A program made the position numbers and the translations under genes. From Acutalibacteraceae bacterium (GTDB lineage: Bacteria > Bacillota > Clostridia > Oscillospirales > Acutalibacteraceae), in NCBI GenBank assembly GCA_045630265.1, contig JAZQSV010000041.1:525-64524 (forward strand): a DNA stretch of 64,000 bases. Reading direction: 5' to 3'. The notes beneath the pieces were generated by a model. It worked only from the letters and a program-made list of their open reading frames with translations, had not been told where the DNA came from and did no database searches. How positions within the stretch are numbered: the first letter of the stretch is position 1; every line of letters begins with the position of its first letter. Of this stretch, positions 29,632 through 45,270 are shown piece after piece.

Positions 29632-29670
29632 AAAAAAGAAGCTCTCGGCCAATGCCGAGAGCTTTTGTTC
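29632..29670. terminator. bidirectional terminator; 3' end of the long pel/c-di-GMP operon
   Basis: aagctctcggc/gccgagagctt stem with A/T runs on both sides. Confidence 0.8.
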
Positions 29671-29678
29671 TATTTAAT

Positions 29679-31238
29679 TTATACAAAGGCAACTTTACTC
29701 TCTTCCTTGTGCATATACATAGCCTGGTCGGCCTTTGCAAAAACGTCCTCGTAAACTCTGTCAATTACGGGGTCAAAGAGTGCAACACCTCTTGCAACTG
29801 AAACAGCAACTTTTTTATCACACACGGTAACAAAATCTTTAGAACAGGCCTCATCCATACACCCTAAAAGGGTGTGGTAGTTAGAGTAGTCATCACCCTT
29901 TAAAATAATGGCAAATTCATCGCCACCAATACGGAAAATGGTGCTATCCTTAAATATATCGGTAAGGATTTTTGCGGTATGTATAATTAAATCATTACCA
30001 ACATCGTGGCCGTATTTGTCGTTGGTTTGCTTTAGGTTATTTATGTCGGCTACCACTACGCCAAATTTAGGGTTACCACAACAAATATCTTTGTTTAGCT
30101 CTGCAATGGCTTCGGTGTATGCTGTACTATTTTTAATGCCGGTCAGAGAATCTCTGTAAGCCAGTGCGTTAATGTAGGTGGTATATTCTTTGATTTTTGC
30201 ATAGGCGCTAGTTAAAACGCGGGAAAGGGTACCTACCTCGTCCTTAGATTCTATGGGAATTTCCTTAAGGTCGGTTTCATTTACACCAAGCGCCATTGTT
30301 TCGGCGGCGGAGGTGAGTTGCTTTAAGGGGCGTATAATTCTGTTTGTAACAACTATAGTATAAATAATCGAACAAATAAGAACAATGATAAATGCAAAAA
30401 CTATTTTGCTGAGCATAGGATGAATATCGTGTTGAATATCCTTATAATCAGCGCGAAGTTCTAAAAGCATACCGTTATTAAGCTGGGAGTTTGCCTTTGT
30501 GTGGGGATTTGCAGATTCTTCATGTTCAACCTTATTGTATTGAGTTTGACCGTCTTTGGAAATGAGCACGGCGTAGCCACTTTCGTAAACGTTAATATTC
30601 TGAATACGTTTTATCAGGTAGCTGAAGTCCATATCGAAGCCTACAACACCCACAAGCTCGTTTTGTATGTAAATCGGGGAAACGTAGGAAATAAGCTGAT
30701 TTGAATGGCCCGGGAAGTAGTAGGGCTCAAGCCACACGCCCTCCCTTGCATTTACTGCGGTATAATACCAACCAACGTTTTGGATATCATCCTTACCGAA
30801 CTGATTAAGATCTGTAAGGGGCATGTCCTTCAAAGATCCGTTTATAATCATCTTATAAAAACCGCTTGTACCGTCGGAGACGCTCGGGTCAAGGCGAATA
30901 TAAAATCCCTCTATACCGTTTGTGTTGAGAGCGATCTCAATTAGCATGCTTTCCATTTTTGCAAGGTATGTATTGCGGGCAGTTTTATTTTCAAGATCAT
31001 CTGCGTCTTTGATTTCGGTAATAGCATAATGCACCGCAATGCTTGCAGATTTTGTAATATCCCCCAATACGTCGTTAATTTGCGCAGCTTCCTTTTGGCA
31101 AACGTTGTTTAAAATTCTATCAGCATCACGGTGCATAACCTCGTGGGTCATTTCAACCGCAATAACAGATACTATTGCAGTAATAATCAGAAGTCCCGAA
31201 ATAACAACGGTTAGTATTTTAGTTTTAATTGACTTCAT
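29679..31238 (-). CDS. membrane sensor diguanylate cyclase (TM-Cache-TM-HAMP-GGDEF)
   Basis: Two TM helices flank a Cache-like periplasmic domain. HAMP segment (NRIIRPLKQLTSAAETMA). Intact RIGGDEFAIIL. No RxxD I-site 5 residues upstream (KDSTIF). Confidence 0.9.
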   Translation of the reverse strand: MKSIKTKILTVVISGLLIITAIVSVIAVEMTHEVMHRDADRILNNVCQKEAAQINDVLGDITKSASIAVHYAITEIKDADDLENKTARNTYLAKMESMLIEIALNTNGIEGFYIRLDPSVSDGTSGFYKMIINGSLKDMPLTDLNQFGKDDIQNVGWYYTAVNAREGVWLEPYYFPGHSNQLISYVSPIYIQNELVGVVGFDMDFSYLIKRIQNINVYESGYAVLISKDGQTQYNKVEHEESANPHTKANSQLNNGMLLELRADYKDIQHDIHPMLSKIVFAFIIVLICSIIYTIVVTNRIIRPLKQLTSAAETMALGVNETDLKEIPIESKDEVGTLSRVLTSAYAKIKEYTTYINALAYRDSLTGIKNSTAYTEAIAELNKDICCGNPKFGVVVADINNLKQTNDKYGHDVGNDLIIHTAKILTDIFKDSTIFRIGGDEFAIILKGDDYSNYHTLLGCMDEACSKDFVTVCDKKVAVSVARGVALFDPVIDRVYEDVFAKADQAMYMHKEESKVAFV

Positions 31239-31255
31239 TTTTCTGCCTCCCTTTT

Positions 31256-33355
31256 CTACTTGGCACCGTTTATGTTGTAAACATCGGTAATGTTTCTGTA
31301 ATAGCCCTCTAAAACGGTATGTCCGCTCGAGTTTTTTACTCGCTTACCACTAAAGCGCACAAGCAAATCGCCCAAAGAGGGGTGGCACCAGGTGAACTCA
31401 ATTTGTACGGCTTTTTCCCCAAGCTTCATTTTACTTAGGCACGTTTCAACCTCAGGTAAGCAGTCGGGATGAATGTTTTTATAAAAATATTCAAAAGATT
31501 CTTTAGGTGTGCTTTGGTTAGCCACACCGGTTAGTTGCGCCATAGTTTTGTCCATATGCAGTTCGTGGCCACCACTGCCGCCAAGACGCATTATCCAAAG
31601 CCCGACACCGTTCTCATGAAGAATATCTTTTGGGTCAAAATGGACAAAGCCGATTTTTTCTTTAAGCTCAAAAATTTTATTTATAAAGGCCTGTCGCTCG
31701 GCATATTCGTTAGAAGATTTATCTATATACGCCCTTTCAATGCCCTCTACAGTGTTTGGCTTATCAAACAAATATCCCTGAATAATATCGGGGAGCAGCA
31801 ACTCTAAGGTTACCAGCTCGCGGGTGCTCTCTACTCCTTCGCAGCAGGTTCTAATGGCGTTGCCTCTAGCAAATTCTATAACGTTACTTATAAGGTTGTG
31901 GTTATAGGTTTCCTTTTCAATACCGCTTACAAAAACTCTGTCAATTTTAATTTCGTCAACGTTCATTTGTTTCAAATAACTAAGATTTGAATATCCTGTG
32001 CCAAAATCATCAATGGCAAAGTTGATGTTATAAAATTTTAGTTTTTTAATGGTATTTACCAGTCGTGGGCTGTTATGAAGCTCAACCGATTCGGTTATCT
32101 CAACCGTAAGTGCATCTCCGGGAAGATCGGCCTGAGTAACTTTTTCTATTACCCTTTCGGCAAGGTCGTTATCTTCAAATTGCAGTGCTGAGAAGTTAAC
32201 ACTTATATGTAGGTTTGGCAAGAATTGGCGCCACTTTTTACACTGTGTAAGAGCTTGCTCCAAGACCCAAAGACCTACCTTTTTAATAAGACGCGACTCT
32301 TCCAAAACGGGTATAAATTCATCGGGAAAAACTCTGCCACGTGTTTGGGAATTGTAACGTAGCAGTGCCTCCACACCGTAAATTTCATAGCTACCGGCGC
32401 GTATTTGTGGCTGGTAATAAATTTCAAAGCCTTCGAAATTATTATCTATGCTTTGCTTTAATTCCTCAAGCAGCTCTAGTGAAGAAATCTTTTTACTTAA
32501 ATCCTCTGAAGAGAAAAACTCAATGCGGTTGTTGGAAATATTTTTTGCTTTTTTAAGGGTCATATTAACCGAGTCCAAAAGCTGAGTTTCATCTAAAAAC
32601 AAGGTATTATCGATAGGCACTGCACTGGCAGTAAAGGTGCACTTTCCCGCCATGGTTTGTTTAATTGTAAGATAACGCTCCATTGCCTCTTCTTGAGACT
32701 CTACGTCTAAAACAAGGGCAAAATAATTGTGGTCTACGTGGTATGCGGCCAATACCTTTTCTAAATTCTCGCAAAACTCGGCGATTTCTTTTAAAAGGGT
32801 ATCACCCCAATCCCTACCGTGGGTAAGGTTAAGGGTAGCAAGACTGTCAATATCAAGGAACATTAAGTATCCCTTGCTTTTGCTTAAATATCCCTTAAGG
32901 TCTGTGCGAAGCTTATTTTTATTCCAAAGAGCGGTAAGGGGATTGTAAAGATGGCGCAAATTTTCTTCCGAAACACGGCCCATCATAAGGTAGGGCTTGT
33001 CCTCGCCATCACGAATAACGGTACCATGGCAGTTTATCCAAACCTTTTGGCCCTTGCGATTAATCCAACGGTAGTCCATATTGTGGGTGTCTTTTTCACC
33101 ATTTACAATCTGGTTTAAGCTATCTAGTACCGCGCCGCGGTCGGCGGGGTGAATAATTTTAAGCATATCGGGAGTGCTGTTTGTTTCACTGCCGTTTTTG
33201 CGAATGTCGTAGTTTTTATCAATGTCTCCAAAAAACCATCTTGTATCTGCCTTAATGTCCCAAACAAAAAGATAGTCGTCTGTAGAGCGGTTAATGGTTT
33301 CAATTAGTTTCAGGGTAGTTTCAAAGCCGTCATTGGTCTTTAGAAAGTTATCCAT
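31256..33355 (-). CDS. c-di-GMP phosphodiesterase (PAS - degenerate GGDEF - EAL - C-terminal PAS-like)
   Basis: EAL set is intact (YGVEALLRY, DDFGTGYSNLSYL, CCEGVES, QGYLFDKP). The GGDEF position reads VDHNYF. The ATG overlaps the DUF4956 stop (ATGGATAA). Confidence 0.9.
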   Translation of the reverse strand: MDNFLKTNDGFETTLKLIETINRSTDDYLFVWDIKADTRWFFGDIDKNYDIRKNGSETNSTPDMLKIIHPADRGAVLDSLNQIVNGEKDTHNMDYRWINRKGQKVWINCHGTVIRDGEDKPYLMMGRVSEENLRHLYNPLTALWNKNKLRTDLKGYLSKSKGYLMFLDIDSLATLNLTHGRDWGDTLLKEIAEFCENLEKVLAAYHVDHNYFALVLDVESQEEAMERYLTIKQTMAGKCTFTASAVPIDNTLFLDETQLLDSVNMTLKKAKNISNNRIEFFSSEDLSKKISSLELLEELKQSIDNNFEGFEIYYQPQIRAGSYEIYGVEALLRYNSQTRGRVFPDEFIPVLEESRLIKKVGLWVLEQALTQCKKWRQFLPNLHISVNFSALQFEDNDLAERVIEKVTQADLPGDALTVEITESVELHNSPRLVNTIKKLKFYNINFAIDDFGTGYSNLSYLKQMNVDEIKIDRVFVSGIEKETYNHNLISNVIEFARGNAIRTCCEGVESTRELVTLELLLPDIIQGYLFDKPNTVEGIERAYIDKSSNEYAERQAFINKIFELKEKIGFVHFDPKDILHENGVGLWIMRLGGSGGHELHMDKTMAQLTGVANQSTPKESFEYFYKNIHPDCLPEVETCLSKMKLGEKAVQIEFTWCHPSLGDLLVRFSGKRVKNSSGHTVLEGYYRNITDVYNINGAK

Positions 33356-34019
33356 GATACTCACCGTTATACTGGATAAGTGTAGCGTCCTCTACACCCT
33401 CCACTTCCTTTATTTTATCTAGGAAGAACATATCGTTGTTCTTGCAGTACACTTCAACCGCCATTTCGGTCTTGCCTTTACGTACTGTCTTGGATTTTAC
33501 AAAGTATTTCATTTTACCTAAGGCGCGGATTACGTTATCGCCAACCTCGTCGCCCTCATAGTGAATAACGGCGATATAAATGCGTCCCTTTTGCTGCTTG
33601 TTGTAGAAGATAATAATCATACCTATCATTACTATAGCAGTAACAGCAACAAGCAAATACATACCTGCGCCTGACGTGATACCGGTGGTTATTGCCCAGA
33701 AAAGGTAAAGTAAATCAAGCGGGTCCTTAATTGCGGTTCTGAAACGTACAATAGAAAGAGCACCAACCATACCAAGAGAAATAACAATGTTGGTACTAAT
33801 GGCCAGGGTTACCATTGCAGTAAGAACTGTCATACCCACAAGGGTAATTGCAAAACTGCGGGAATAAATAACTCCAACGAAAAATTTGCTGTAGACAAAG
33901 TAAATAACTGCGCCCATAAGCACTGCCGTTATAAGACCAAGGGCAATGCTAGTAAGACTGGCACCATCAAAGGCACCTGATTCAAGTATTGACTTTTTTA
34001 TAAAATCTTGAACGCTCAT
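33348..34019 (-). CDS. DUF4956 family membrane protein
   Basis: Multi-pass N-terminal half followed by a soluble C-terminal domain. It is the usual partner of VTC-domain genes. The ATG at 34019 follows a GGAGGGA SD. Confidence 0.7.
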   Translation of the reverse strand: MSVQDFIKKSILESGAFDGASLTSIALGLITAVLMGAVIYFVYSKFFVGVIYSRSFAITLVGMTVLTAMVTLAISTNIVISLGMVGALSIVRFRTAIKDPLDLLYLFWAITTGITSGAGMYLLVAVTAIVMIGMIIIFYNKQQKGRIYIAVIHYEGDEVGDNVIRALGKMKYFVKSKTVRKGKTEMAVEVYCKNNDMFFLDKIKEVEGVEDATLIQYNGEYHG

Positions 34020-34033
34020 AAAATTTCCCTCCA

Positions 34034-34756
34034 CTAATTTTCAAACCAATATTTAAAACTGTTCATATACTCAGTTTTTTCGTAACAAAGCACGTATTTT
34101 GAAACTGCCGTAAATTCCGAACCTCTGCCGGGGAGTATTTCTCTGACAAACTGCGGCAAAAATTCGGTAAACTTTACCTCCATAACACATTTGCCCGGCT
34201 CCAAGACCGGAAGAGTGGGAAGCGTGGGGTCAAAAATATCAAAGCTACCCACCGCCGCGCGAACGTCCATATCAAAGGTAATTCGTACCGTACCTTCGTC
34301 CAGTATCCAGGGCTCTCTGTCGTAGTCAACAATGGTGCGGGGACGCATCATATTGCAGACGCATTCGGTATAAAATTCTCTGCAAAGAGGTTGGTCGCTG
34401 TGCAGCAAAAATTCGTAGTCGCCGTCTAAAATCTTATAAACCTCATCCTTTGTAAGCGAGGCCGCTTCTTTAAAAATATAGGCGCCGAATTTTTTCTTTC
34501 TTTCAAGCTTTATACTGCTGTCGCCGCAGTCGTATATGCGAATACGGTATTTTTTTCTTCTTAAAACACCGGCATCTTTTTCCTCGTATGCCGATTTATA
34601 GCAGTCCTCAAAGTAAAGACTTCTTAGCATATATCCGCCGTTTTTGGCGTGCTTATCAAGTTTAAGAAGTGGGTCAAGCCGCTTGCAAATAAGCTGCTTT
34701 TGGGCAGTATCTATAAGATATTTCCATTCGTTTCTATAACGCTCAGGTTTCGACAT
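34034..34756 (-). CDS. VTC-domain (polyphosphate polymerase / CYTH-like tunnel) protein
   Basis: YRNEWKYLI...MLRSLYFED...YRIRIYD...MEVKF is an alternating charged beta-strand pattern typical of the VTC/TTM fold. The ATG at 34756 overlaps the cotH 3' end. Confidence 0.7.
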   Translation of the reverse strand: MSKPERYRNEWKYLIDTAQKQLICKRLDPLLKLDKHAKNGGYMLRSLYFEDCYKSAYEEKDAGVLRRKKYRIRIYDCGDSSIKLERKKKFGAYIFKEAASLTKDEVYKILDGDYEFLLHSDQPLCREFYTECVCNMMRPRTIVDYDREPWILDEGTVRITFDMDVRAAVGSFDIFDPTLPTLPVLEPGKCVMEVKFTEFLPQFVREILPGRGSEFTAVSKYVLCYEKTEYMNSFKYWFEN

Positions 34757-36509
34757 AAATGTCCTCCACAATATTACCTTCTTTGTCTACGAAGAAACTC
34801 TTTGTACCGTAAATCTTACCTCGCTCCAAAATGTAGTAGTCAAAGGCATACTGCGTTTCACCGCTCTCGTTTTTAGCAGTTACGCGCATAAAGTACTGTC
34901 CTTTTGGAAGCTTATCAAATTTTGCTATTGGAATAGAAATATCTGTCTGTTTTACTAAAACGTTTTTGAAGTTATAATCCTTTGCAAGCTCAAATGTATA
35001 TGTAATATCTTCGCCATTGAAGTCAAAGGAGGCATCCCATTCTACTGTATATCCATCATTTTTTTTCACCGGAACACCAATATAAAATGGCATCGGCTTT
35101 TTCAAAGAGGCCTTATAAAGAGCATAGTTATCGGCTATTTCCTTGGTTATACTCTTAGCCACTTTGTCATACTCAGATTTTGTAAGGCGGGTATAGGTTA
35201 AATCTTTGCCCTGATATACGTAAGGTTTTAAAAGCTTTGAGTAGGCATCAACGTAGGAGTTAACAAGCTCGTCGCTCATAAGGTTCTTTAAATCTTCTAC
35301 TGCCTTGTCAAGTTCTTTAAGATAGGTTTCAGATTTAAGAAGGCGCTGGAATAGTACGTTACCCCAATAGTTACTAACGCCGCGTTCCCAATTAAGATAG
35401 TCGTTTCTTCCTAAAATTTTGTACTCCTCAGCGAGGAAGGAACCGTCGATATCCCAAGGGAGAATATACCATCTGTCCATGTTTTGTGGGCTGTAGATAT
35501 AGAAGTTGCGGTTTTGGGTATCAATATTACCTATAAGCAGGTTGAATGCCATCCAGTAGGCAATATTTTCTATATCTAAATGCTCTTCTACAATCTCCTC
35601 TATAGGAATGGAGAAATCGTTTATTTTTTCGAGCAGGTTAATAAGCTTTGTGTGGTCGTCGTCGCCCTTTATTTCCAAAATTTCCTCGAACTTTTTAAGG
35701 TCGTATTTGGGATCCTCTTTTAAAACAATAATATCTTCGTAGCGGTAAAATTCGCACACGTTGATTTTGTAAAGATGTCCTCTGTTGTCAAGACCGTGGG
35801 CCTTAAGAGCGGTTTTGTTAAGCTGTTCTACCTGCGTGTAAATTCCGTAGTCCTGAAATTTGCCGCTGCCGCCCGCCGTTGTATCCTTAACGTATAGGTG
35901 AACAAAGGTGGTGCGAAGACTAAGTAGCTGTTCGATATTTGTAAGCAAATCAAAGCCAAGTTTGTTTCTAAAGCGAAGACCGTCGCCCTGATGCTTATTA
36001 AGGGCAAGGGTGGTTTGTCCGCGCCAGTCGCCTTTATTCTCTTTAATGCTTATCTTGTAGTTTTTCTGGGGATTTCTACTGGAGGACTGACCCCTTATTT
36101 GCACCGTGCAGTTTGGGGCCATCTGTCCGTAGCCAAGCTCACCGGGCATAAGACCCTTTTCATCGCCTACCTGTAAAAGACCTGCAACCTTATATCGGTC
36201 TACACCCATTCGGTCGTAGTCATATGCAGAATAGGTATTTATCTCCTCCCAGGTGTGGTTGGTGCCCTCACCCTCGTTACCCGTAGAAACGGTAAGATAC
36301 ATAGTAACAATTTCAGTGTTACTGTATTGTGAGTATAGTAGATTCTTGTCCCTTATATGTATACTTTCTTCGGTTTCGAAGTCCTCTGCATCCAGCTTGG
36401 TGCCCAGGTTGGTATCAATTGCTGTGTTAATATTACTATCACTGCAACCGCAAACCGAAAGAAGCATTAAAAGGGCAAGTGCCAAAGACAAAAAAGCTTT
36501 AAGTTTCAT
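34743..36509 (-). CDS. cotH: CotH-family atypical kinase-fold protein, lipoprotein-type signal peptide, C-terminal Ig/FN3-like domain
   Basis: MKLKAFLSLALALLMLLSVCGC signal. CotH core (LALNKHQGDGLRFRNKLGFDL, NFYIYSPQNMDRWYILPWDIDGSF). Confidence 0.8.
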   Translation of the reverse strand: MKLKAFLSLALALLMLLSVCGCSDSNINTAIDTNLGTKLDAEDFETEESIHIRDKNLLYSQYSNTEIVTMYLTVSTGNEGEGTNHTWEEINTYSAYDYDRMGVDRYKVAGLLQVGDEKGLMPGELGYGQMAPNCTVQIRGQSSSRNPQKNYKISIKENKGDWRGQTTLALNKHQGDGLRFRNKLGFDLLTNIEQLLSLRTTFVHLYVKDTTAGGSGKFQDYGIYTQVEQLNKTALKAHGLDNRGHLYKINVCEFYRYEDIIVLKEDPKYDLKKFEEILEIKGDDDHTKLINLLEKINDFSIPIEEIVEEHLDIENIAYWMAFNLLIGNIDTQNRNFYIYSPQNMDRWYILPWDIDGSFLAEEYKILGRNDYLNWERGVSNYWGNVLFQRLLKSETYLKELDKAVEDLKNLMSDELVNSYVDAYSKLLKPYVYQGKDLTYTRLTKSEYDKVAKSITKEIADNYALYKASLKKPMPFYIGVPVKKNDGYTVEWDASFDFNGEDITYTFELAKDYNFKNVLVKQTDISIPIAKFDKLPKGQYFMRVTAKNESGETQYAFDYYILERGKIYGTKSFFVDKEGNIVEDIYVET

Positions 36510-36512
36510 TCT

Positions 36513-37964
36513 TTATCTCCTCTCAAACCGTTCTTCTAAAAATACCCCAAGTCGTGTGAAAAAGCCACTGCGGTCCTCTGCCACAAGGGGCTGTACAGAC
36601 AATATGTAAAATGGAAGCCGCTTGGTAAAATAGTCAAGCCGCAGTGCGGCAATTATTACAAAAACAAGTGCTGCAATTAAAAATCCAAAGCCGTAATAGA
36701 CGTATGAAAAGAAAAGGGAGAATATTGTAAGCACCGTTCCTAAAGTGGCAAAAACAAAGGTTGCAAGCAAGGCTCCCTTATAATCTGTAAAGTAAAGAAG
36801 AATAAGCATAAGCATATTGCCTATAGCGTAAAGCCCGTAGGCAACGCAAAGTGTTCTGAAATATCCGCGCATAATCTCGTTAAAGCCAAGGGGAAGTAAA
36901 TCCAACAAAAATCCGCCAAGTGCAATACAGGCCGCGGTAAAAAGCAGTTGTTTAAGCGAGGTGTAGAAAATTTCGGTTTTAAGGGTTCCCAGCATTTCTT
37001 TTTCGGACTGCTTAATATCACCAATAGTGCCTTTATCGTTATAAAGACTGTAGTGGTTGCGGTATTTGGGATAGAAATTAACCTCTACTGAAACAACAAA
37101 ATTAACAGTGGTCATAAGCGCCGTCATAAAGGCAATAAGTGCGGGAACGTCGTGCCATGGTGCGCCGTAGAACAGACCCTTAACGTGCACCCTTATATCG
37201 GAACACCATATTATAACAAGGTGAGAGAACATTCCAATATTCATAAAAAGTCCCGAAAGGGCAAGGGGTAAAAACTCATCCAGCCATCTAAGGAAGGTAA
37301 AGGCGCCAAGTTTTGTGTGGGGGAAGTAGCGATGAAGCAAAATTACGTTCCAGATAAGCATTATTCCATAACCGACACTAACTGAAAACAAAAGTGATTC
37401 AATGGTAGGGAACCTTAGCCACAAAAGCAATGTGCCAAGTAGTATAGAAACAGCAACCGAGGTTAAAAAGGAAAGGAAAATTCCCTTATAGTCCTTAATT
37501 GCAGTTAAAAAGCTCATGGCGTTCCAAACAATTATAAGCTCGCCAAAAAGTACAAAGCACAAAACTCCCTGAATCAGTGTTGCGCCAGAAAAAACCAAGA
37601 ATAAGCCGTAGAGGGGGCTTCCAACTGCCAACATTATAACGGTAGAGCCCCAAAATGCGGGTAAAACAGCACCGTTTTGCTCTTCAAAAAGCATATCGGC
37701 AATATAGCGGGTTACCACCATAGAGAAAAACGAAGAAACGGTAACCGAAGCCAAAAGTGTGTAGGTTATCATACAAATAAGCAACTCGCGATTATGTGTA
37801 TCTATTGCAAAAAAACTGCAAATAGCCATAATACCAAGTAGCAGTAAAACACCAAGCAACATAGGGCCTGCACATATAATTGTTGCATAACCGTAGGCCT
37901 TGGTTGTGTTAAGCACGCCCTTTTTTTGGAAAAGCTTTTTTAGTTCAAAGCCGATTCCTGCCAA
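36513..37964 (-). CDS. pelG: Pel exopolysaccharide export/polymerisation membrane protein PelG
   Basis: The N-terminus MAGIGFELKKLFQKKGVL is the PelG hallmark. About 12 TM helices. The TTG start lies inside the pelF 3' end. Confidence 0.85.
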   Translation of the reverse strand: MAGIGFELKKLFQKKGVLNTTKAYGYATIICAGPMLLGVLLLLGIMAICSFFAIDTHNRELLICMITYTLLASVTVSSFFSMVVTRYIADMLFEEQNGAVLPAFWGSTVIMLAVGSPLYGLFLVFSGATLIQGVLCFVLFGELIIVWNAMSFLTAIKDYKGIFLSFLTSVAVSILLGTLLLWLRFPTIESLLFSVSVGYGIMLIWNVILLHRYFPHTKLGAFTFLRWLDEFLPLALSGLFMNIGMFSHLVIIWCSDIRVHVKGLFYGAPWHDVPALIAFMTALMTTVNFVVSVEVNFYPKYRNHYSLYNDKGTIGDIKQSEKEMLGTLKTEIFYTSLKQLLFTAACIALGGFLLDLLPLGFNEIMRGYFRTLCVAYGLYAIGNMLMLILLYFTDYKGALLATFVFATLGTVLTIFSLFFSYVYYGFGFLIAALVFVIIAALRLDYFTKRLPFYILSVQPLVAEDRSGFFTRLGVFLEERFERR

Positions 37965-39370
37965 CTGTCTTCCACCTCTTTATACAAATCTCTGTATTTT
38001 GTAAGCATAATGTTGTATCTAAAATGTTCATAGGTGCGCCTTTGTCCTACTTCTCCCATTTTAAGGCGAAGCTCCCTAGATTCACAAAGGGTTTCCATAG
38101 CGTCTGCAAGTAGGTCGCGTTGCATAGGGGGAACAAAGTAGCCCGCCTTACCCAAGGTATCACCCGGTTTACCGTTTAAAAGCTCACTGCAGCAACCCAC
38201 GTCGGTTGTAACACAGGGGCGCCTTGCTGCAAAGGACTCCAAAACCGATAAGGGCTGTCCTTCAGAAATACTGGTAAGTAGCGTAAAATCAAGCTTTTCA
38301 AAATATTCTATTATATTAACTCGGCCGGTAAAGATAATTTTATCGTTAAGCCCAAGCTGATTTACAAGCGCGTAGCATTCCTCGGCATATTCCTCGTCAT
38401 CAACGCCGCCCATTATATGAAGTCGAACGTTATCCATACGGCAGGAAAGCTCAAAGAAGGCATAAATCATAGTTTTTATGTCCTTAATTGGAGCGAGTCG
38501 CACAACGGCGCCAATGTCTACAATGCCGTCTTCTTCCTTTAGCGGTATATTGCAAAGTTTTTCGTAGCTTATGCCGTTTTCAATAACCCTGCATTTATCT
38601 TTGTCGCAACCCATGTCAATCTGTGTTTGCATTGCTCTTGTAAAAAGGGAGGTTACCCTAAAGGCCCTTGCATAAATCAAATCGGAAAGCATATAGAAAA
38701 AGTCTATCCAATGGGGCTTAAAGGCGCGCGCCACCCATTTTGCACGAATAATTTCTTCCTCGCGTTCACGTGTATAAATACCATGTTCGGTAAGAAGTAA
38801 TGGCTTTTTATATATGTAGGCTGCCATAGAAGCAAGCAGTCCGCCGTAGCCGGTGCAAATGGCGTGGTAGCAGTCGGCCGTTGGAATTTCGGTACCCATA
38901 AGGTACAAAACGGGAAGTAGTCGAGAACGAACCGAGTGAAATGCATCGGAAAATGCAATAAAGGGGAAATCTGCTTTACAGGTTTCGGTTAGTGTCTCTA
39001 AAAAGCTTTGGCTTTTAAGGTAGGACATGGGGTTAATTTTTTTAACTTGATATAACTCAAAAAGAAGGTTCCAGTTAGGGCTGTTGGAGGATACAAGACA
39101 TCTGTGCGCCTCGGTTTCTGCCTCGGAAAAGTTGTGTTCAAAAACGCCGCTATCTTTAACTCTTAGGGCATCGTCCAAAAACACCTGTTTAACCTCTACA
39201 ACGTTTTCTGGAAGCTTGTAAACAAACTTATCTTTATCTTCGGCCTTAGCACCAATAACCCAAAGCACAAATTCGTGCTCGGGCATTTCGGTTATGTATT
39301 GGTGCATCCAGGTTGAAACGCCGCCGTTAATGTAAGGGTAGCAACCTTCCAAAATCAAACAAATTCTCAC
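37940..39370 (-). CDS. pelF: Pel glycosyltransferase PelF (DUF3492 + GT4)
   Basis: MRICLILEGCYPYINGGVSTWMHQYI N-terminus, and a GT4 C-terminus (LTSISEGQPLSVLESFAARRPCVTTDVG). Confidence 0.85.
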   Translation of the reverse strand: MRICLILEGCYPYINGGVSTWMHQYITEMPEHEFVLWVIGAKAEDKDKFVYKLPENVVEVKQVFLDDALRVKDSGVFEHNFSEAETEAHRCLVSSNSPNWNLLFELYQVKKINPMSYLKSQSFLETLTETCKADFPFIAFSDAFHSVRSRLLPVLYLMGTEIPTADCYHAICTGYGGLLASMAAYIYKKPLLLTEHGIYTREREEEIIRAKWVARAFKPHWIDFFYMLSDLIYARAFRVTSLFTRAMQTQIDMGCDKDKCRVIENGISYEKLCNIPLKEEDGIVDIGAVVRLAPIKDIKTMIYAFFELSCRMDNVRLHIMGGVDDEEYAEECYALVNQLGLNDKIIFTGRVNIIEYFEKLDFTLLTSISEGQPLSVLESFAARRPCVTTDVGCCSELLNGKPGDTLGKAGYFVPPMQRDLLADAMETLCESRELRLKMGEVGQRRTYEHFRYNIMLTKYRDLYKEVEDSWQESALN

Positions 39371-39379
39371 GTCAAACTC

Positions 39380-41227
39380 CTATTTAAAGGAAACCGTAAC
39401 AGTATCCTTATTAGCTTCAAGCAAATATAAATTTCCCGTAATGTGGGTAAGCTTTCCGCCCAGAACCTTATCGGGCTTATTTTCATTAAAGCGCACCATA
39501 AACTGCGCGTTGTCGTAAAAGTTTTCTATGGTAAGAACCATTTTATCGTCGTAAACCGTGGTTTTGGGCGCAACCGCGGCAAAGCGCTGAACGGCGTTGG
39601 ACATTTCAGAGCCGGTAAAGTTGCGTAGTTCGGGGGCCGAGGTGTAAAGCCAGCTAAGATAAGAGTCAAACCTTTTTGTAAGTTCTCTCCAACCAAGCTC
39701 TGCGCCACGATCGGGGTCAAGCGCATCGTCAGGGTGGGTAAAGTGGTTGTTTATATAGTGGAAATTAAGTTCAGAAAATGCGCCCATTGTCATAAAGTCG
39801 TCAATGTCGCAGCCTGAAATAATACGGGGCTGGTCAACGATGCCGTTTTCGTCAACCTCGTACTCTTGCAGTAGGGCAAAATCCAAAACGTCATCGGGAA
39901 GATAAATACCCGAAAGGGTTTTAATCTGGTCAAATTCAGTTATAAGCATCTCCCTGCCCTCATCTGAAATAAGGTTTGAAGGGGGAACGTAAACCGACAT
40001 TTCTACACCGGGAAAAAGCTCGTCGCAAAAATCGGTGAGATGGGTAAAGGCCTTTACCATAGCGGTGTAGCTCTCCCAAGTTTTATAATCAAAAATACCT
40101 TTATAATCTTTATTATTCAGACAAAGGGGTTGGTGGTTATAACCGTGGTAACCAATTTCTCCGCCCTTTCTAAGAAGCATATTGCCAAAGGTCATAAAGG
40201 TAGCGGTATCGGGCTGGGCGTCGGTTGTTCCGTCTATATTGTCATCGTAGCTTTCTATTGCAAGACCGGTATACTTAATGCCGTAGCGATCTGAAAAATT
40301 CATCATACTCGGCCACCAAATATTGATGTAAAAATCTCTGATGGTGGTGCCGTAGTCGCGGGTTATGTACTCACTGTTTCCGCTTGGAATCTGCGACGGA
40401 AAGTCGTCAAGATAAAAGGTAGAACCGTTTATAACAGGATAAACGTAAACCTTTTTCATAAGACTGATTGATGCGGCGAAGAAGCCCCTGTAGGCCTTAT
40501 CACACATGCCAAAGTTATCTACAACGAACATACCGTCACCATACACAGCTTTCCAAATTACGGGTATGCCGGTTTGGTTTTTTATGCGGGCGTATACTGT
40601 AGTCTTTCCTGGCATCAACTGAACCGTTCTTGCCGATTCATAAAAGTCAGTAACAACGTAGGATTTTCCTGCACCCACCATAAAGTCCTTTTCTACGTAT
40701 ATCTCATCTACGGCGGAGTAGCCAAAGCTTGCCGCAATACCAAGGCGGTTTTCAATGGCCGAGGAATAGGCGTTTTTATCAAGGGTAAGGGGAAAAAGCA
40801 CGCTTCCGCCCTCATAAACCCAATTACAAATATCAATAATTTTTTCTCCCACAAAGGAAAGGTCGGAGAAAAGAATAATAACGTTTTTAAAGCCCGAAAG
40901 CTCGGGTATCTGTTCATCTTTAAGGTTTACGTACTTAGTGCCAACCTTCATATCGGTTAAAATAACCTCAAACTGTTCCAGGGCGAAAACAGATGGCTCG
41001 TTTTCGCTGCTATAAAGCAGTAACGTATCGGATTCAAGGGAACTACAGGCTTTTGCTTTAGTTACTATGTTCTCTTTTGGGAGAGGTTCTAAGCTTTGTG
41101 CGGAATAATTAAACCTTACACCGCTAAGCTCAATAAAAAGGATAGCCGCAATCAGGGAGAATACCATAGCAATGGCCAAAACTCCCTTAAATCGGAAATT
41201 ATTAAATTTTTCCCTCAGCTTTCCCAA
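39380..41227 (-). CDS. pelA: DUF2194-type membrane-anchored polysaccharide deacetylase (PelA deacetylase-domain equivalent)
   Basis: N-terminal TM helix. CE4-like metal motifs (FYLDDFP and GYHGYNH). It occupies the position between pelE and pelF. Confidence 0.7.
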   Translation of the reverse strand: MGKLREKFNNFRFKGVLAIAMVFSLIAAILFIELSGVRFNYSAQSLEPLPKENIVTKAKACSSLESDTLLLYSSENEPSVFALEQFEVILTDMKVGTKYVNLKDEQIPELSGFKNVIILFSDLSFVGEKIIDICNWVYEGGSVLFPLTLDKNAYSSAIENRLGIAASFGYSAVDEIYVEKDFMVGAGKSYVVTDFYESARTVQLMPGKTTVYARIKNQTGIPVIWKAVYGDGMFVVDNFGMCDKAYRGFFAASISLMKKVYVYPVINGSTFYLDDFPSQIPSGNSEYITRDYGTTIRDFYINIWWPSMMNFSDRYGIKYTGLAIESYDDNIDGTTDAQPDTATFMTFGNMLLRKGGEIGYHGYNHQPLCLNNKDYKGIFDYKTWESYTAMVKAFTHLTDFCDELFPGVEMSVYVPPSNLISDEGREMLITEFDQIKTLSGIYLPDDVLDFALLQEYEVDENGIVDQPRIISGCDIDDFMTMGAFSELNFHYINNHFTHPDDALDPDRGAELGWRELTKRFDSYLSWLYTSAPELRNFTGSEMSNAVQRFAAVAPKTTVYDDKMVLTIENFYDNAQFMVRFNENKPDKVLGGKLTHITGNLYLLEANKDTVTVSFK

Positions 41228-42096
41228 AATGCAAAAACCTCCTTTGCTCTTGAAGAAAGGAAAATGTGACTGTCTTCTATTTCCTTCATCAGTTTCTTTA
41301 TATCATCACCTCTGCCAAGTGAGGCAAGGTATTTCAGTTTAAGTAAAAAATAATCTTCGGTTTTTGGGTAGGCCTTTTCCATTTGCCTTAGCGTTTCGCC
41401 CGCAAGGGTAAAGTTTTTGCGAATAAGCTCATTCTCTACCGTACGAACATAGTCGTGTATATTTGCCGTTTCGGAAAGCTTTTTAAGCATTAGTGAAGAA
41501 AAAAGCTCGCGATTTAGCACCTCTACCTGACCTTGCATAAGATTTTGTGAAAGGCAGTTCCATAAAAAGTCGGTATATTTTTCCAAAACAAGTGGGTTGT
41601 CGGGTTCAGCGGCATACTGCCTTTCAAGGTCTTGCAGCATATAGTCATTTTCCTTGGAAATTTCCACCATTGCCGTTACGGCGTAGTGAACAACCTCGGT
41701 ATCCTCGTTGTTGCCCGCCTTTTGTAAAAATTCAATATATTCCTTGGGGTTATCGTTAAGCACATCCATAATAATTGTGCGTCTTTCTTTGGCTGAGTTT
41801 ACAACAAGTGCCTCTTCAATAGGTACAGTGGAAGCGGCAACCTTTTTCTCATCTATGGTAATACCCTTATAAAGCTCCGATTCAAGTTTTAGTTTTTCTA
41901 CTCCAACTTCAATTCCGTCGTCGGCTTCAAACCAAATTTGAAAGTGTAGTATAAGTAGTAATATGGCACCCCAAAAAGGAATGAATAGTGCCACAAAGAA
42001 CATATACTTATGGACCTTTAAAATATTAAATTTAATGCCTAAAAATATTAGCAGACACAAAATTAAATGTACCGCAAGTACTATTAAGTATATCAT
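41215..42096 (-). CDS. pelE: PelE-like protein (two N-terminal TM helices plus helical repeat domain)
   Basis: The topology and operon position match PelE. The sequence itself is weakly diagnostic. Confidence 0.55.
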   Translation of the reverse strand: MIYLIVLAVHLILCLLIFLGIKFNILKVHKYMFFVALFIPFWGAILLLILHFQIWFEADDGIEVGVEKLKLESELYKGITIDEKKVAASTVPIEEALVVNSAKERRTIIMDVLNDNPKEYIEFLQKAGNNEDTEVVHYAVTAMVEISKENDYMLQDLERQYAAEPDNPLVLEKYTDFLWNCLSQNLMQGQVEVLNRELFSSLMLKKLSETANIHDYVRTVENELIRKNFTLAGETLRQMEKAYPKTEDYFLLKLKYLASLGRGDDIKKLMKEIEDSHIFLSSRAKEVFAFWES

Positions 42097-42121
42097 CTTA
42101 CACTCAGTCCTTATTGTATTA

Positions 42122-42413
42122 GGGTATCTTGCTCTACCTTAGGGTAGAACGACATACCCGAACCCGCCTCAAGGTGGCATATTTTGGCGTTTTTCATCCA
42201 TTTAATTCTTGTAATGCGAAAGCATTACCACGCCTTAAATGAACAAAAATCACACAAAATCTCCTCACTTTGAGGTCGAAGATTTTTAAAATAGAGGATT
42301 TTTGTTCTATAAAGGCAAAAACGCAGTAAATCCTTTCGGATTTACGAGTATTTTAACAAAGATAGAGCGAAAATCCACATTTTAAAAACGTGTTCGGATA
42401 TATCGCTCTACCC
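42122..42413 (-). repeat. pair of related imperfect palindromes bounding the pelD-pelE spacer; their arms also form a 22-bp long-range helix
   Basis: Left palindrome at 42122-42159 and right palindrome at 42363-42410. Positions 42142-42163 are complementary to 42392-42413, with 3 mismatches that are all G-U on the sense (minus) RNA. Confidence 0.6.
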
Positions 42414-45194
42414 TAAGTTCACATCCAAATCCAGCCCCTCAAAGCGTGGTAAAATATATTGAAGGTCAGCTTCAGAAGCTTGTGAGAGAAGTAAAATAAG
42501 TTCACCCTCATTTTCGGTGGCACCTATAATATCATTAGCACGAATCTTTGGGGCAAGAATGGTATCGAGTTCCTCTAAAGAGTGGCCCTTGCCGTTAATT
42601 TTAAGCAGCAAGAAGGTTGAAACCTTTTTCTCCGAAAGGGCCTTGAAGTTTTTAAGACATTCATCGAACGGTTCTTTGCGCATAATGTGGGTGTTTTCAA
42701 TGTACTGCTTTTCGTAAACTGCCTGACTATAGTCAAATGCGCGGAGAAGCGACATCTGAACAAGGTCTCGCAAAATTTTAAGAAGGTTTACGTAGTAAAG
42801 AGAGCGCTGGTCAATTCCCGCATGCCACAAAAAGATAAGCATTACAAGCCTTTCTCCGCGATAAACGCCCGCAGCATACATAGGAAGATCATGCCTTAAA
42901 TCTATGTTGCGCCAAATTTCACCCTTTTTAAGTGTGTCTATAACCTCTTTGTAGGTTTCGGTGGATATAGAACGGGAAACACCTTCGATGATGTCGCGGG
43001 AGGCGACCTCAAGTCGTCCAAAAGCACTTTTATCGTTTACCGAATAAACGGTAATGCTTTTGTTTTCAAGCACCTCCTCAAAGGTTTCCATAATTCTTAA
43101 ATACAAAAGCTGCGGCTCTACTGTATCAAGTCGGCGGGTAATATCAAAAATCTTACCAAAGCTATCCTTAGAGCCAATAATCTGTTTTTTTAGGTCCCTT
43201 TTCTCGCGGTAGGTGTCTTCATAAATCTCGCGTGTGAATACAAGCTTATCCTCAAGAAGGCGGTTTTGTTCGGATACAAACTGAATTGTATCATCCTTTC
43301 TTAGCTTTACATAACCACAAAGTGCGCCAACCAAAGCAAAGAATACAAATGCAAGCCAGTTGGTGGGCTCGTAAAAAATGGTCATTAAATTGGTACCCGA
43401 TATAACCTTGGCCACCAGCCAAGAAAGACTGCTAAGCCCTGCTGCCATAAGGCCAAAGTTAAGTCCGTGTATAGTGGCCATTATAACTATGTAGGCCATT
43501 CTAAAATCAACAACCGAGAATATTACGGTTGAGCCGGTTAAATGCAACAAAAGCTCGGTTACAAGGAAAAGAACAATAAGTTCGGTGAATTTAATGAAAA
43601 GACTGTGCTTTTCAATCCAGCTTTTTATCTTGTCCAACAGAGTTTCATTATGCTCGTTTTTAAGGGATACAAATCTTTCATACTCTTCGGGCAGGTCATC
43701 TAAAAGAGAAATTTTGGCAAACCAACCGTACTCGTTGCGAAGCGCACGGTTAGTAAGGGTAATTTCACTCGGTTCATTATCCCCAACAAAGTCTATTTTA
43801 GCGTCCTTTCTAAGGGAAACAAGTGCATTTGCAAAATCCGAAAAACGAATATTAAACTCGTCGCCAACCGTTAAAATGCCGCCGCCGCTTTTCCAGTTGT
43901 CGGTAAGGCGTATTAAAAGTTCGGAAAGGTCAGAAGGAGAAATAAAATGTATTTTTTCTTCCTTGGGACGCTTTATGGTTATGGTTTTACCGTCGTACAC
44001 CTTTTGGAAGATTTTATATAAAAAGTCGTTTTTATACCTTGCTGAATAAAGGTAAGGAATCTGCACAATCTTAACGTCAAGGGTTTTATTTTTTGAGTAG
44101 AAGTGGCAAAGTTTTTCCTTTGCGGCCGACAAAATAGCTCGGTCTGATTGCTCAGTAAAGGATGAATCAAGGGAGGAAAGGTAAACAACCTTAGCGTGTT
44201 TTTGAAGCTCAGCCGAATATTTTAAAACCTCTCTTAACTCTTCAGCATCATTTTTTTCGGTCGTATGGAAGGTGAGCTCGCTGGAGAAAAATACAATAAG
44301 ATCAAAATCGTAAGTTTCAAGCACTGCGCGGATAGAGGGCTTTTTAATACGGAAAAGCTTAATCCTGTCCTTAGAGCCAAGCTCGGTATTGCCTATTACC
44401 ATAACCTTGCTGTCGGGGAAGGTGGAGTCAATAAAATCCTTGGTTATGTACTGCGTGTTACCAATAAAAAGCACACGTTCGGGTACAAATCCGGCACTAT
44501 TAGCAGTAACCGCTCTTTGTTTTGTGAGAATTTCTCTAAGGGCTACAAGGTCGCTGTGGTTTACAACGTGAAGTAAAGCGTCAACAAGAATTTCGTTGAA
44601 GACACCGCACATGCCACTTGAAATCATCTGAACGGCAACGTCTTGTGAAAAGGCTTCCTTATAGCTGCGGTTACTGGTTAAAGCGTCGTAAGAGTCGGCA
44701 AGGGATACCACTTGCGCCGAAAGAGGAATATCGTCCCCTTTCAGTCCGTCGGGGTAGCCGGTGCCGTCGTACCTTTCGTGGTGGGCACGTGTAATCTCGG
44801 CTGCATATTGTTTAATTTTGGGATTCAGTCCTGAGAAATCAAGCTCGTTCACAAGCTTCTCACCGAAAACTGAATGCTTTTTAACAATGTCGTACTCTAC
44901 TGGAGAAAGTCGTCCGGGAAAATCTAAAATGCTTTTGGGAATTTTGGATTTTCCTATATCGTGCAGGGAAGAGGCAATAGATATAGCGTCAATGTCTTCG
45001 TCACTAAGGTCATATTTATCATGATTCTGGAGCTCTTTTAAGATTAACTGGGTAAGCATACGAACATGGTAAATATGAAAGCCGTTTTCCCCATTAAGAT
45101 TTTTAGGGATGGTGCTATCGGTGAAAACCTCTATTTTTACGGTCGCAGCATCGCCATTTTGCTCTAAAACCAAAAGGGAGTTTTGCTCTGCCAT
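42408..45194 (-). CDS. pelD: PelD-like c-di-GMP receptor fused to an N-terminal HD-GYP domain (HD-GYP - degenerate SDR - 4 TM - GAF - degenerate GGDEF)
   Basis: HD-GYP motifs SLHDIGKSKIP and HHERYDGTGYPDGL. The SDR-like region lacks GxxGxxG (FIGNTQYIT). A TM block is followed by a C-terminal GAF/GGDEF-like region with no GGDEF motif. Confidence 0.75.
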   Translation of the reverse strand: MAEQNSLLVLEQNGDAATVKIEVFTDSTIPKNLNGENGFHIYHVRMLTQLILKELQNHDKYDLSDEDIDAISIASSLHDIGKSKIPKSILDFPGRLSPVEYDIVKKHSVFGEKLVNELDFSGLNPKIKQYAAEITRAHHERYDGTGYPDGLKGDDIPLSAQVVSLADSYDALTSNRSYKEAFSQDVAVQMISSGMCGVFNEILVDALLHVVNHSDLVALREILTKQRAVTANSAGFVPERVLFIGNTQYITKDFIDSTFPDSKVMVIGNTELGSKDRIKLFRIKKPSIRAVLETYDFDLIVFFSSELTFHTTEKNDAEELREVLKYSAELQKHAKVVYLSSLDSSFTEQSDRAILSAAKEKLCHFYSKNKTLDVKIVQIPYLYSARYKNDFLYKIFQKVYDGKTITIKRPKEEKIHFISPSDLSELLIRLTDNWKSGGGILTVGDEFNIRFSDFANALVSLRKDAKIDFVGDNEPSEITLTNRALRNEYGWFAKISLLDDLPEEYERFVSLKNEHNETLLDKIKSWIEKHSLFIKFTELIVLFLVTELLLHLTGSTVIFSVVDFRMAYIVIMATIHGLNFGLMAAGLSSLSWLVAKVISGTNLMTIFYEPTNWLAFVFFALVGALCGYVKLRKDDTIQFVSEQNRLLEDKLVFTREIYEDTYREKRDLKKQIIGSKDSFGKIFDITRRLDTVEPQLLYLRIMETFEEVLENKSITVYSVNDKSAFGRLEVASRDIIEGVSRSISTETYKEVIDTLKKGEIWRNIDLRHDLPMYAAGVYRGERLVMLIFLWHAGIDQRSLYYVNLLKILRDLVQMSLLRAFDYSQAVYEKQYIENTHIMRKEPFDECLKNFKALSEKKVSTFLLLKINGKGHSLEELDTILAPKIRANDIIGATENEGELILLLSQASEADLQYILPRFEGLDLDVNLG

Positions 45195-45241
45195 ACTATT
45201 TCTCTCCTTTCGAAAATTTAAAGATAATATCTCAAATATAT

Positions 45242-45270
45242 ATTATAATATATATAAATTTCTTTGTCAA
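45242..45270 (-). promoter_or_regulatory. exact consensus sigma-A promoter, TTGACA-17-TATAAT, upstream of pelD
   Basis: Minus-strand TTGACA at 45270-45265 and TATAAT at 45247-45242, about 40 nt upstream of the pelD ATG. Confidence 0.7.

Follow-up and report, generated by a model that had tools for sequence, protein, structure and literature searches.

The window examined here, a stretch of 64,000 nucleotides (nt) from contig JAZQSV010000041.1 of an Acutalibacteraceae bacterium (GenBank assembly GCA_045630265.1), carries on its minus strand a ten-gene pel operon, which in our judgement is probably a variant of the known extended class of Gram-positive Pel operon, belonging to a clade of gut Oscillospirales made up of the Acutalibacteraceae and their relatives. 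An earlier sequence-only reading of this DNA knew of no arrangement in which further genes stand behind pelG, and on this point it was overtaken by the literature. In clostridia and streptococci, Whitfield et al. 2020 (PLoS Pathog) had described pelDEA(DA)FG as continuing without a break into genes for CotH, a polyphosphate polymerase, DUF4956 and DUF4832 (PMC7112168, S4 Fig); they also reported that this four-gene accessory set correlates with an epimerase-extended PelD (PMC7112168), and genetic work on such a locus followed in 2025 (PMC12345266). The joining of pel to cotH, VTC and DUF4956 has already been published, and the core of the finding is therefore known and not a discovery to pursue. 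What is new is an intact HD-GYP domain on PelD, a pair of EAL and GGDEF genes for cyclic di-GMP (c-di-GMP) enzymes in the place of the DUF4832 gene, the conservation of these features across the clade, and a mobile structured element in the spacer behind pelD. The parts of the locus, in the direction of transcription, are as follows (aa, amino acids; SDR, short-chain dehydrogenase/reductase; GT4, glycosyltransferase family 4).

45242..45270, minus strand: sigma-70-type promoter TTGACA-17-TATAAT, score 12/12, 47 nt upstream of the pelD ATG
44556..45194, minus strand: PelD (928 aa) residues 1-213, predicted HD-GYP c-di-GMP phosphodiesterase domain (Pfam HD_5/HD, E=6.5e-26)
43632..44555, minus strand: PelD residues 214-521, degenerate extended-SDR (GalE-like epimerase) domain, predicted from an AlphaFold2 (AF2) model and Foldseek
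42408..43631, minus strand: PelD residues 522-928, comprising a transmembrane segment, a GAF domain and a receptor domain of degenerate GGDEF type, likewise predicted from an AF2 model and Foldseek
41215..42096, minus strand: pelE-like gene, 293 aa, in a conserved position between pelD and the DUF2194 gene
39380..41227, minus strand: gene for a DUF2194 protein in the PelA-DA position, TTG start, 13-nt overlap with pelE
37940..39370, minus strand: pelF, GT4 glycosyltransferase (DUF3492 and Glycos_transf_1)
36513..37964, minus strand: pelG, membrane protein, 25-nt overlap with pelF
34743..36509, minus strand: cotH-family kinase-like gene (Pfam CotH, PF08757, E=1.9e-71)
34034..34756, minus strand: VTC-domain (triphosphate-tunnel) gene, soluble product of 240 aa from the ATG
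33348..34019, minus strand: DUF4956 membrane protein gene (Pfam DUF4956, 38.3 bits against a cut-off of 30.6)
31256..33355, minus strand: gene for a predicted PAS - degenerate GGDEF - EAL phosphodiesterase, 8-nt overlap (ATGGATAA) with the DUF4956 gene
29679..31238, minus strand: gene for a predicted dCache - HAMP - GGDEF diguanylate cyclase (Pfam GGDEF, E=1.1e-24)
29637..29666, both strands: bidirectional intrinsic terminator between the cyclase gene and the convergent gene

Most of what the sequence-only reading had claimed about the layout was borne out. All ten minus-strand open reading frames (ORFs) between 45194 and 29679 lie exactly where it had placed them, and the identities and order of the genes were upheld, that of PelE by position and architecture. 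Searches with profile hidden Markov models from Pfam and NCBIfam agreed with nine of its ten family calls, including PelF, PelG, CotH and VTC; the tenth protein, PelE, was without any family match. The limits of the operon and the close coupling of its genes were likewise supported. The exact consensus promoter was recovered as a 12/12 match at 45270-45242, and the hairpin at 29637-29666 is good in both directions, with a stem of 13 base pairs (bp) on the plus strand and 11 bp on the minus strand, seven GC pairs and a T-run after each. Over the whole region promoter-like matches (38, against 36 in shuffles) and terminator-like matches (18, against 17) are about as numerous as in shuffled sequence, so that these two sites are distinguished by their quality and position and not by their count. 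The junction lengths given by the sequence-only reading hold with the start codons it had chosen (overlaps of 13, 25, 14 and 8 nt, other gaps of 17 nt or less), and the longest-ORF starts enlarge two of the overlaps, that of cotH and VTC to 29 nt instead of 14 and that of DUF4956 and the EAL gene to 17 nt instead of 8. From the single promoter, the single terminator, the overlapping junctions and the conserved synteny described below, we infer that the genes from pel to the cyclase form one transcript.

A scan with a single PelG query, covering one genome per GTDB species, yielded 65 loci at 49% identity or more (nearly all at 64% or more). Nearly all come from metagenome-assembled genomes (MAGs) of Oscillospirales from the ruminant and human gut (Acutalibacteraceae, 'Flemingiibacterium', Fumia and others), and the loci also include those of two cultured organisms, Angelakisella massiliensis, at 64% identity, and Anaerobium acetethylicum, at 49%. 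The presence and order of genes were taken from tblastn searches of all ten window proteins against these loci, many of which are cut by contig ends. All ten genes occur in the same order in 27 of the 65; the HD-GYP domain is present on PelD in 48 of 50 assessable loci, and the EAL gene directly follows DUF4956 in 33 of 47. Both Lachnospiraceae loci with a visible PelD have one without the HD-GYP domain. A survey of pelG neighbourhoods had been proposed along with the sequence-only reading, and in this survey cotH lies immediately 3' of pelG in all 58 relatives in which both genes are visible. Of 43 relatives, 19 have a 12/12 promoter in the 250 nt before pelD, and in 14 of these its distance, 41-49 nt, is close to that in the window. 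The genes that flank the operon in the window (MatE, CE4 deacetylase, uridine-kinase-like and endonuclease I) adjoin pel in none of the 65 relatives; an extension of the unit by conserved flank genes was therefore rejected, and the ten genes behave as a discrete unit. Within the unit the junctions of the relatives, listed here, are as tight as those of the window, negative values being overlaps.

pelE/DUF2194 junction: median -13 nt (51 relatives)
pelF/pelG junction: median -25 nt (58 relatives)
pelG/cotH junction: median -4 nt (58 relatives)
cotH/VTC junction: median -29 nt (55 relatives)
VTC/DUF4956 junction: median -1 nt (51 relatives)
DUF4956/EAL junction: median -17 nt (32 relatives)
EAL/GGDEF junction: median +16 nt (29 relatives)

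These distances bear on one alternative, that the pel genes, the cotH-VTC-DUF4956 block and the c-di-GMP genes have merely been juxtaposed by chance or position and share no function. No biochemical link of Pel to CotH, VTC or DUF4956 is known, and the c-di-GMP tail is absent in 14 of the 47 assessable relatives and hence dispensable for the rest. We nevertheless hold this explanation to be highly improbable, given that pelG, cotH, VTC and DUF4956 directly follow one another, overlapping or nearly touching, wherever a relative shows them (51-58 loci), and that the arrangement recurs across phyla in the literature (PMC7112168). Moreover, deletion of the CotH (SIR_1594) and DUF4956 (SIR_1592) homologues of Streptococcus intermedius reduces Pel and aggregation, and the authors of that study (mBio 2025) found no such three-gene arrangement outside pel loci (PMC12345266).

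Some individual loci depart from the common pattern. In locus L040 the pel unit ends without the c-di-GMP tail and recA comes next. An additional GGDEF-family gene, 33-39% identical to the operon cyclase, lies just upstream of pelD in two loci (L011:1257-2801 and L020:1-762). The VTC protein matches L029:13181-13911 as two adjacent pieces, covering 47% and 52% of the query, and this split may be a frameshift, an in-frame stop or a MAG assembly error. A Lachnospiraceae pel locus (L065:4886-8579) has two tandem DUF2194 (PelA-DA-like) genes.

The identification of the operon as pel is carried by its central genes. PelF scores 318 bits against the NCBIfam equivalog model NF038011, for which the cut-off is 100, and the Pfam PelG family (PF16933) covers the whole of PelG with E=1.4e-130. 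The protein in the PelA-DA position matches Pfam DUF2194 (PF09960) with E=2.3e-147 over residues 25-602, and DUF2334 weakly. The Gram-positive PelA has been described as CE4+DUF2194, CE4 being a carbohydrate esterase family, and the window protein has the features of a mono-functional PelA-type deacetylase without a hydrolase domain, for which deacetylase activity is predicted. The first ~55 residues of the pelE-like protein are hydrophobic and, read by eye, appear to form two membrane helices; an ORF of this kind lies between pelD and DUF2194 in 48-51 relatives, and the protein is a putative PelE on the grounds of position and architecture only. A PelF/PelG-like synthase might of course make a polysaccharide other than Pel. 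The identity to characterised systems is low, PelA-type and DUF4832 hydrolases are absent from the locus, and the extra accessory genes may alter the polymer. We find this quite unlikely, however, since PelF stands three-fold above its equivalog cut-off and the D-E-A-F-G order is exactly that of the Bacillus cereus and Streptococcus loci that make a Pel-like polymer rich in N-acetylgalactosamine (GalNAc).

PelD consists of four parts. Its N-terminal domain has an intact set of HD-GYP motifs, namely HD78, HHERYDGTGYP at 138-148 and then the ADxxDALT/RSYK stretch, and its best matches in a phmmer search of the PDB were PmGH (4mcw, E=2.3e-29) and PA4781 (4r8z, E=1.1e-25). Among 120 homologues HDxGK and HHExxDGxGYP are present in every one, ADxxDALT in 119 and RSYK in 117. 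The domain thus shows the motifs expected of an HD-GYP phosphodiesterase, and we predict that it is enzymatically active. Alternatively, this domain, and possibly the EAL protein as well, could be a non-catalytic sensor or interaction domain, with PelD acting as a receptor only. Degenerate GGDEF, EAL and HD-GYP domains often act as receptors, and another enzyme domain of PelD, resembling an epimerase, is itself dead. We consider this unlikely in view of the near-complete retention of the motifs in the homologues, of the activity of the nearest solved relatives, 4mcw and 4r8z, both of which are active enzymes, and of the preservation of EAL, DDFG and EGVE in the EAL protein.

The middle region of PelD, residues 214-521, has no Pfam match. 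An AF2 model of it, with a predicted local distance difference test score (pLDDT) of 72 and a predicted template-modelling score (pTM) of 0.74, gave UDP-sugar 4-epimerases and other extended SDRs as the best Foldseek matches (6zl6, E=2.7e-10, template-modelling score (TM) 0.60). None of 120 homologues has the nucleotide-binding GxxGxxG motif, and in the window protein another residue stands in place of the catalytic Tyr, so that the region has, by its model, the character of the catalytically dead epimerase domain of the 'extended PelD' of Whitfield 2020. These authors reported an inactive epimerase domain on PelD in clostridia, streptococci and actinobacteria.

In the C-terminal region residues ~530-630 are hydrophobic helices. 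Searches with the sequence that follows, by phmmer against the PDB and with a profile of 12 diverse homologues against the PDB, gave no PelD match, nor did Pfam at E<=5 on the 12 homologues, and a structure model was therefore used instead. The top PDB match of the AF2 model of residues 627-928 in Foldseek was PelD 158-CT of Pseudomonas aeruginosa (4etz_B, E=7.6e-7), with both domains aligned, and 4etx and 4dmz were matched as well. An RxxD I-site (R885-x-x-D888) lies seven residues upstream of the degenerate GGDEF position and is invariant among the 12 diverse and 120 close homologues. Structure and position together suggest that this region is a PelD receptor with a predicted c-di-GMP site.

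The fusion of the two ends of this protein is restricted in its distribution. In a library of 1.84 billion representatives clustered at 50% identity, of which the top 150 matches were viewed, there was one full-length HD-GYP::PelD representative (P0121, 930 aa) together with fragments, and ~140 of these best 150 matches were extended PelDs of ~700 aa that align from about query residue 240. At 90% clustering there are more than 120 clusters of HD-GYP::PelD proteins of ~927 aa. Judged from these clusters, the HD-GYP fusion is an innovation of a single clade and is common within it. No mention of it was found in the Pel papers or c-di-GMP reviews of the open-access literature searched.

The two tail genes encode the remaining predicted enzymes of c-di-GMP turnover. 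The first product matches Pfam EAL with E=1e-57, PAS_3, and GGDEF weakly; EAL332, DDFG452 and EGVE509 are present and the GGDEF motif is absent. The second has the Pfam domains MCP-like_PDC_1, dCache_1, HAMP and GGDEF, with an extracytoplasmic dCache sensor, and it has GGDEF438 and lacks the autoinhibitory RxxD I-site. Both the EAL phosphodiesterase and the GGDEF cyclase thus keep their catalytic motifs and are predicted to be active. No cultured organism with all ten genes was identified. The cultured Angelakisella massiliensis Marseille-P3217 has the HD-GYP::PelD form but not the EAL and GGDEF tail. Behind DUF4956 it has genes for a GGDEF protein, for a hybrid histidine kinase that bears a PDC sensor, and for a REC-HD-GYP protein (L048:15520-20298), which suggests that c-di-GMP genes were recruited independently to the same locus.

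Of the three accessory proteins, CotH begins with a signal- or lipoprotein-like sequence and carries an additional domain at its C-terminus, and it aligns with B. cereus CotH (5jd9) with E=2.5e-7, including the PWD.D stretch; it belongs by these matches to the CotH family of atypical kinases, and kinase activity is predicted. The VTC protein matches Pfam VTC (PF09359) with E=7.7e-29 and 101 bits against a cut-off of 23, and its R-x-E-x-K motif and alternating basic and acidic strand residues are invariant across 10 homologues. Of the eukaryotic Vtc4-type complex the catalytic domain only is present, with no SPX domain or Vtc1-type pore. As this is a bare tunnel domain with a DUF4956 neighbour, we call it a 'VTC-domain protein' and not a VTC complex or a polyphosphate machine. 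The DUF4956 protein had no meaningful match in the PDB; its S. intermedius homologue has been described as MgtC-like, with four transmembrane segments and an ACT domain (PMC12345266). Going by their families, the VTC gene may give rise to polyphosphate and CotH may act as an extracytoplasmic kinase on the matrix. It is speculation that polyphosphate serves as an anionic partner of cationic Pel, and equally so that the accessory block phosphorylates the polymer or a matrix protein.

A possible way in which these parts work together is the following. The membrane cyclase would sense an extracellular ligand and produce c-di-GMP, which at the I-site of PelD would turn on polymerisation and export of a GalNAc-rich polymer by PelF and PelG, and PelA-DA would then partly deacetylate this polymer outside the cell. 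The activation of PelF and PelG by PelD and the deacetylation by PelA are proposed here by analogy with B. cereus, in which c-di-GMP is known to bind PelD, and with P. aeruginosa. The PAS-EAL enzyme and the receptor-tethered HD-GYP domain would degrade the signal locally and reset the switch. The exported CotH, the cytoplasmic VTC-domain protein and the membrane-bound DUF4956 protein would aid the production or modification of Pel through phosphate chemistry, as the S. intermedius genetics may be taken to indicate. If the enzymes of the operon do degrade the signal locally, Pel output would be set by a private circuit and not by the cellular c-di-GMP pool. In its strongest form, this proposal is of a complete in-cis circuit of sensing cyclase, PAS-EAL protein and active HD-GYP domain on PelD, in which the receptor destroys its own ligand and so generates a self-resetting pulse independent of the cellular pool; this we put forward tentatively and would give somewhat less than even chances. 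No description of a receptor-tethered phosphodiesterase on an exopolysaccharide synthase was found in the literature searched. The PelD fusion is in any case a natural and widely conserved (48 species-level genomes) joining of a c-di-GMP receptor to a domain predicted to degrade c-di-GMP, and an operon with its own cyclase and phosphodiesterase beside the receptor offers a test bed for models of 'local signalling' in Gram-positive anaerobes.

In the window, pelD and pelE are separated by what the sequence-only reading had described as a 311-nt structured spacer. The length and the strong fold (dG -121.7, z=-11.4 against shuffles) are as it had said; the spacer is, however, an inserted repeat element and not a regulatory leader of the operon. 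It folds strongly because it consists almost entirely of one insertion, which resembles a miniature inverted-repeat transposable element (MITE).

42138..42417, minus strand: MITE-like, TA-flanked element of ~280 nt, making up most of the 311-nt spacer 42097-42407

The window copy has 29-nt terminal inverted repeats (TIRs) that are 86% complementary, and the pelD stop codon (42408-42410) sits inside the left one of these. Among the relatives the gap between pelD and pelE is 13 nt at the median and never exceeds 64 nt, and the element is absent from this spacer in all of them, so that the 311-nt spacer is a lineage-specific insertion and not ancestral. When the locus is aligned with six relatives, the element stands out as a clean insert that begins after pelD has ended and stops short of the ribosome-binding site of pelE, and in-silico excision of the element restores the pelD stop to within 1-2 codons and leaves a spacer of ~40 nt; by this alignment the insertion altered no more of pelD than its final one or two codons. 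A second strain, represented by metagenome scaffold L066 (5778-6057), has the same insertion with several single-nucleotide differences and a PelD that is 100% identical. Other copies within pel loci lie after DUF4956 in L046 (5136-5401) and upstream of pelD in L063 (1-125). A riboswitch for c-di-GMP or another ligand in the spacer was considered and rejected, there being no Rfam match and no such spacer in the relatives. At the gathering threshold Rfam gave nothing for the spacer on the window, and at E<=10 nothing meaningful on the spacer itself; at E<=1 it gave no family for 8 other copies of the element.

The element is abundant outside the window. While a metagenome scan with the exact TIR 24-mer of the window gave 0 matches, a scan with the TIR core and an internal motif found at least 120 gut or rumen contigs (L067-L186), on many of which a second copy lies within a few kb. 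Among the metagenome matches listed, 82 copies are covered by enough sequence, and in 48 of them the right repeat stands at a fixed distance, with 242-248 nt between the TIR cores. When 45 full copies are combined into a consensus, its inverted repeats of 26 nt (CTTAGGCAAACGAGAATAATCCGAAC / GTTCGGATTATTCTCGTTTGCCTAAG) are perfect while the flanks show no conservation, and TA is found at both ends in 38-39 of 40 copies; as TA is self-complementary, it may belong to the TIR rather than being a target-site duplication. A Y-shaped fold common to 40 copies has 88 pairs, 59 of them with compensatory changes. In this fold 95.1% of cells are paired, compared with 77.7% after shuffling and 35-51% when the partners are slid, and the covariation score is 0.452, compared with 0.138 after shuffling (0 of 500 shuffles reach the observed value) and ~0.07 with slid partners. 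There are 204 G-U cells against 33 A-C cells, which suggests that selection maintains the structure on the pel-sense strand of this locus, though the ratio is biased in that the structure was predicted on that strand.

With its TIRs, its small and constant size, the absence of an ORF and its many unrelated sites, the element has the features of a MITE. Among bacterial MITEs and palindromic repeats are the TA-targeting MITEs of the IS630/mariner type, ERIC and the Correia elements. Like these, the window element is short, non-coding and multi-copy, with TIRs and TA flanks, and occupies varied intergenic sites, often abutting the ends of genes; it differs from them in an unusually constant length, in the very strong covariation of its internal helices and in its G-U asymmetry. 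On sequence features we place it among MITE-like repeats flanked by TA, its structure being conserved to an unusual degree. That it is instead an undescribed class of mobile, strand-specific structured RNA of gut Clostridia, and not an ordinary MITE, is less likely. No matching clostridial MITE was found in the open-access literature searched. A partner transposase was not found, and all TIR pairs at long range enclose housekeeping genes. Pairs of TIR-like sequences in four contigs (L102, L116, L126 and L167) were considered as the ends of a 6.4-kb autonomous transposon, which was rejected; their interiors hold comEC, holA, RNase M5-like, asparaginase, radical-SAM and HIT genes and therefore represent two separate copies in a conserved chromosomal region. 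A group II intron (L110:1353-1796) lies ~460 nt from one copy and an RNase P RNA (L073:1079-1481) ~220 nt from another, both probably coincidental neighbours. Being size-constant, strongly covarying, abundant in gut metagenomes and without an Rfam match, the element is a separate lead.

For the operon itself, the question raised by the element is whether it splits it. The element might terminate or process the transcript after pelD, in which case the genes from pelE to the cyclase would be poorly expressed and the operon could be decaying in this genome. It sits exactly between pelD and pelE, with the stable fold given above, and contains a conserved terminator-like hairpin at 42326-42345 followed by a T-run (TGCGTTTTTG); no promoter-like site was found between this hairpin and pelE. 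Yet all nine downstream ORFs are intact and full-length compared with their homologues, and the strain of scaffold L066 keeps the insertion together with its identical PelD and intact neighbour genes. The hairpin has 3 GC pairs of 8 and would thus be a weak terminator. A split operon therefore appears to us an unlikely outcome, and the hairpin with its T-run is the one real caveat to a single transcript in this genome.

Several points weigh against our view of the locus as an extended Pel operon with its own c-di-GMP circuit. The hairpin just described may attenuate read-through into the nine genes downstream of pelD. The assignment of the C-terminal region to PelD comes from a model of moderate confidence (pLDDT 68.5) with a global TM of only 0.36, a low value that arises because the two domains are oriented differently. 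The pelE-like protein has no Pfam or NCBIfam match. The VTC protein, searched against the PDB as a single sequence or as a profile, did not match the solved Vtc4 or Vtc2, and, unlike the eukaryotic enzyme, it has neither SPX nor membrane domains, so that polyphosphate synthesis by it is at most a prediction from its family. Lastly, the local c-di-GMP circuit is argued entirely from gene linkage. We still regard an extended Pel operon as the probable identity of the locus.

Some features elsewhere in the window may be recorded here. A purine riboswitch (55 bits) at 27763-27860 lies directly upstream of a 567-aa ORF at 27919-29622, which has a C-terminal uridine-kinase/PRK domain and converges on the pel terminator. 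A thiamine pyrophosphate (TPP) riboswitch (70 bits) is found at 15586-15690, and a 6S RNA at 21119-21311 (48 bits, barely over the gathering score). At the right end of the window (60001-64000) the GC content falls to 0.32-0.39 and the GC skew is strongly negative (-0.18), unlike the remainder.

The two ends of the PelD fusion can each be compared with solved proteins. Like PelD of P. aeruginosa (4etz, 4etx, 4dmz), the window protein is predicted to have a membrane-anchored receptor of GAF and degenerate GGDEF domains in which RxxD is conserved; sequence similarity between the two is undetectable, and the window protein adds two N-terminal domains. Its HD-GYP domain has the same full HD...HHExxDGxGYP motif set as PmGH (4mcw) and PA4781 (4r8z), whereas the domain is joined in those enzymes to a GAF or REC input domain and here to a c-di-GMP receptor of exopolysaccharide synthesis.

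At the level of the operon, the core is that of the pelDEA(DA)FG locus of B. cereus ATCC 10987, in which Pel is gated by c-di-GMP at the RxxD of the degenerate GGDEF domain of PelD and is tuned reciprocally by one cyclase (CdgF) and one phosphodiesterase (CdgE). In that strain, unlike the window, cdgF and cdgE are not listed among the operon or flanking accessory genes, PelD carries neither an epimerase nor an HD-GYP domain, and a cotH-VTC-DUF4956 block is lacking. The extended locus of clostridia and streptococci (S. intermedius SIR_1591-1594) comes closer. It shares with the window the D-E-A-F-G order, the dead epimerase domain on PelD, and the row of cotH, VTC-type gene and DUF4956 right behind pelG. 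The Lachnospiraceae locus L065 has this identical, published layout, with a 724-aa PelD without HD-GYP and a DUF4832 gene after DUF4956. By domain content the window locus appears to be of the extended pel type in its dead-epimerase PelD and in the three genes behind pelG, and no DUF4832 or PelA-type hydrolase is encoded at it. The S. intermedius locus has a DUF4832 glycoside hydrolase, an active Pel hydrolase (PMC12345266), where the window has the predicted PAS-GGDEF*-EAL protein (the asterisk marking the degenerate domain) and the dCache-HAMP-GGDEF protein, and the PelD of the window has the additional intact HD-GYP domain.

The nearest parallel to the tail genes is in bifidobacteria, where a dual diguanylate cyclase/phosphodiesterase gene takes the place of DUF4832 (PMC7112168, S5 Fig). 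An HD-GYP fusion on PelD is not mentioned for them in the published description, on which our comparison is based. The bifidobacterial and window loci agree in that c-di-GMP turnover replaces DUF4832 and that the first tail gene of the window is also a GGDEF-EAL tandem; they differ in phylum and in that one dual gene stands against a predicted phosphodiesterase with a degenerate GGDEF domain and a separate sensor cyclase. Genes for c-di-GMP turnover thus seem to have been acquired behind DUF4956 independently in the clade of the window, in Angelakisella and in bifidobacteria, which speaks for a joint response of Pel and the accessory block, as a single unit, to c-di-GMP.

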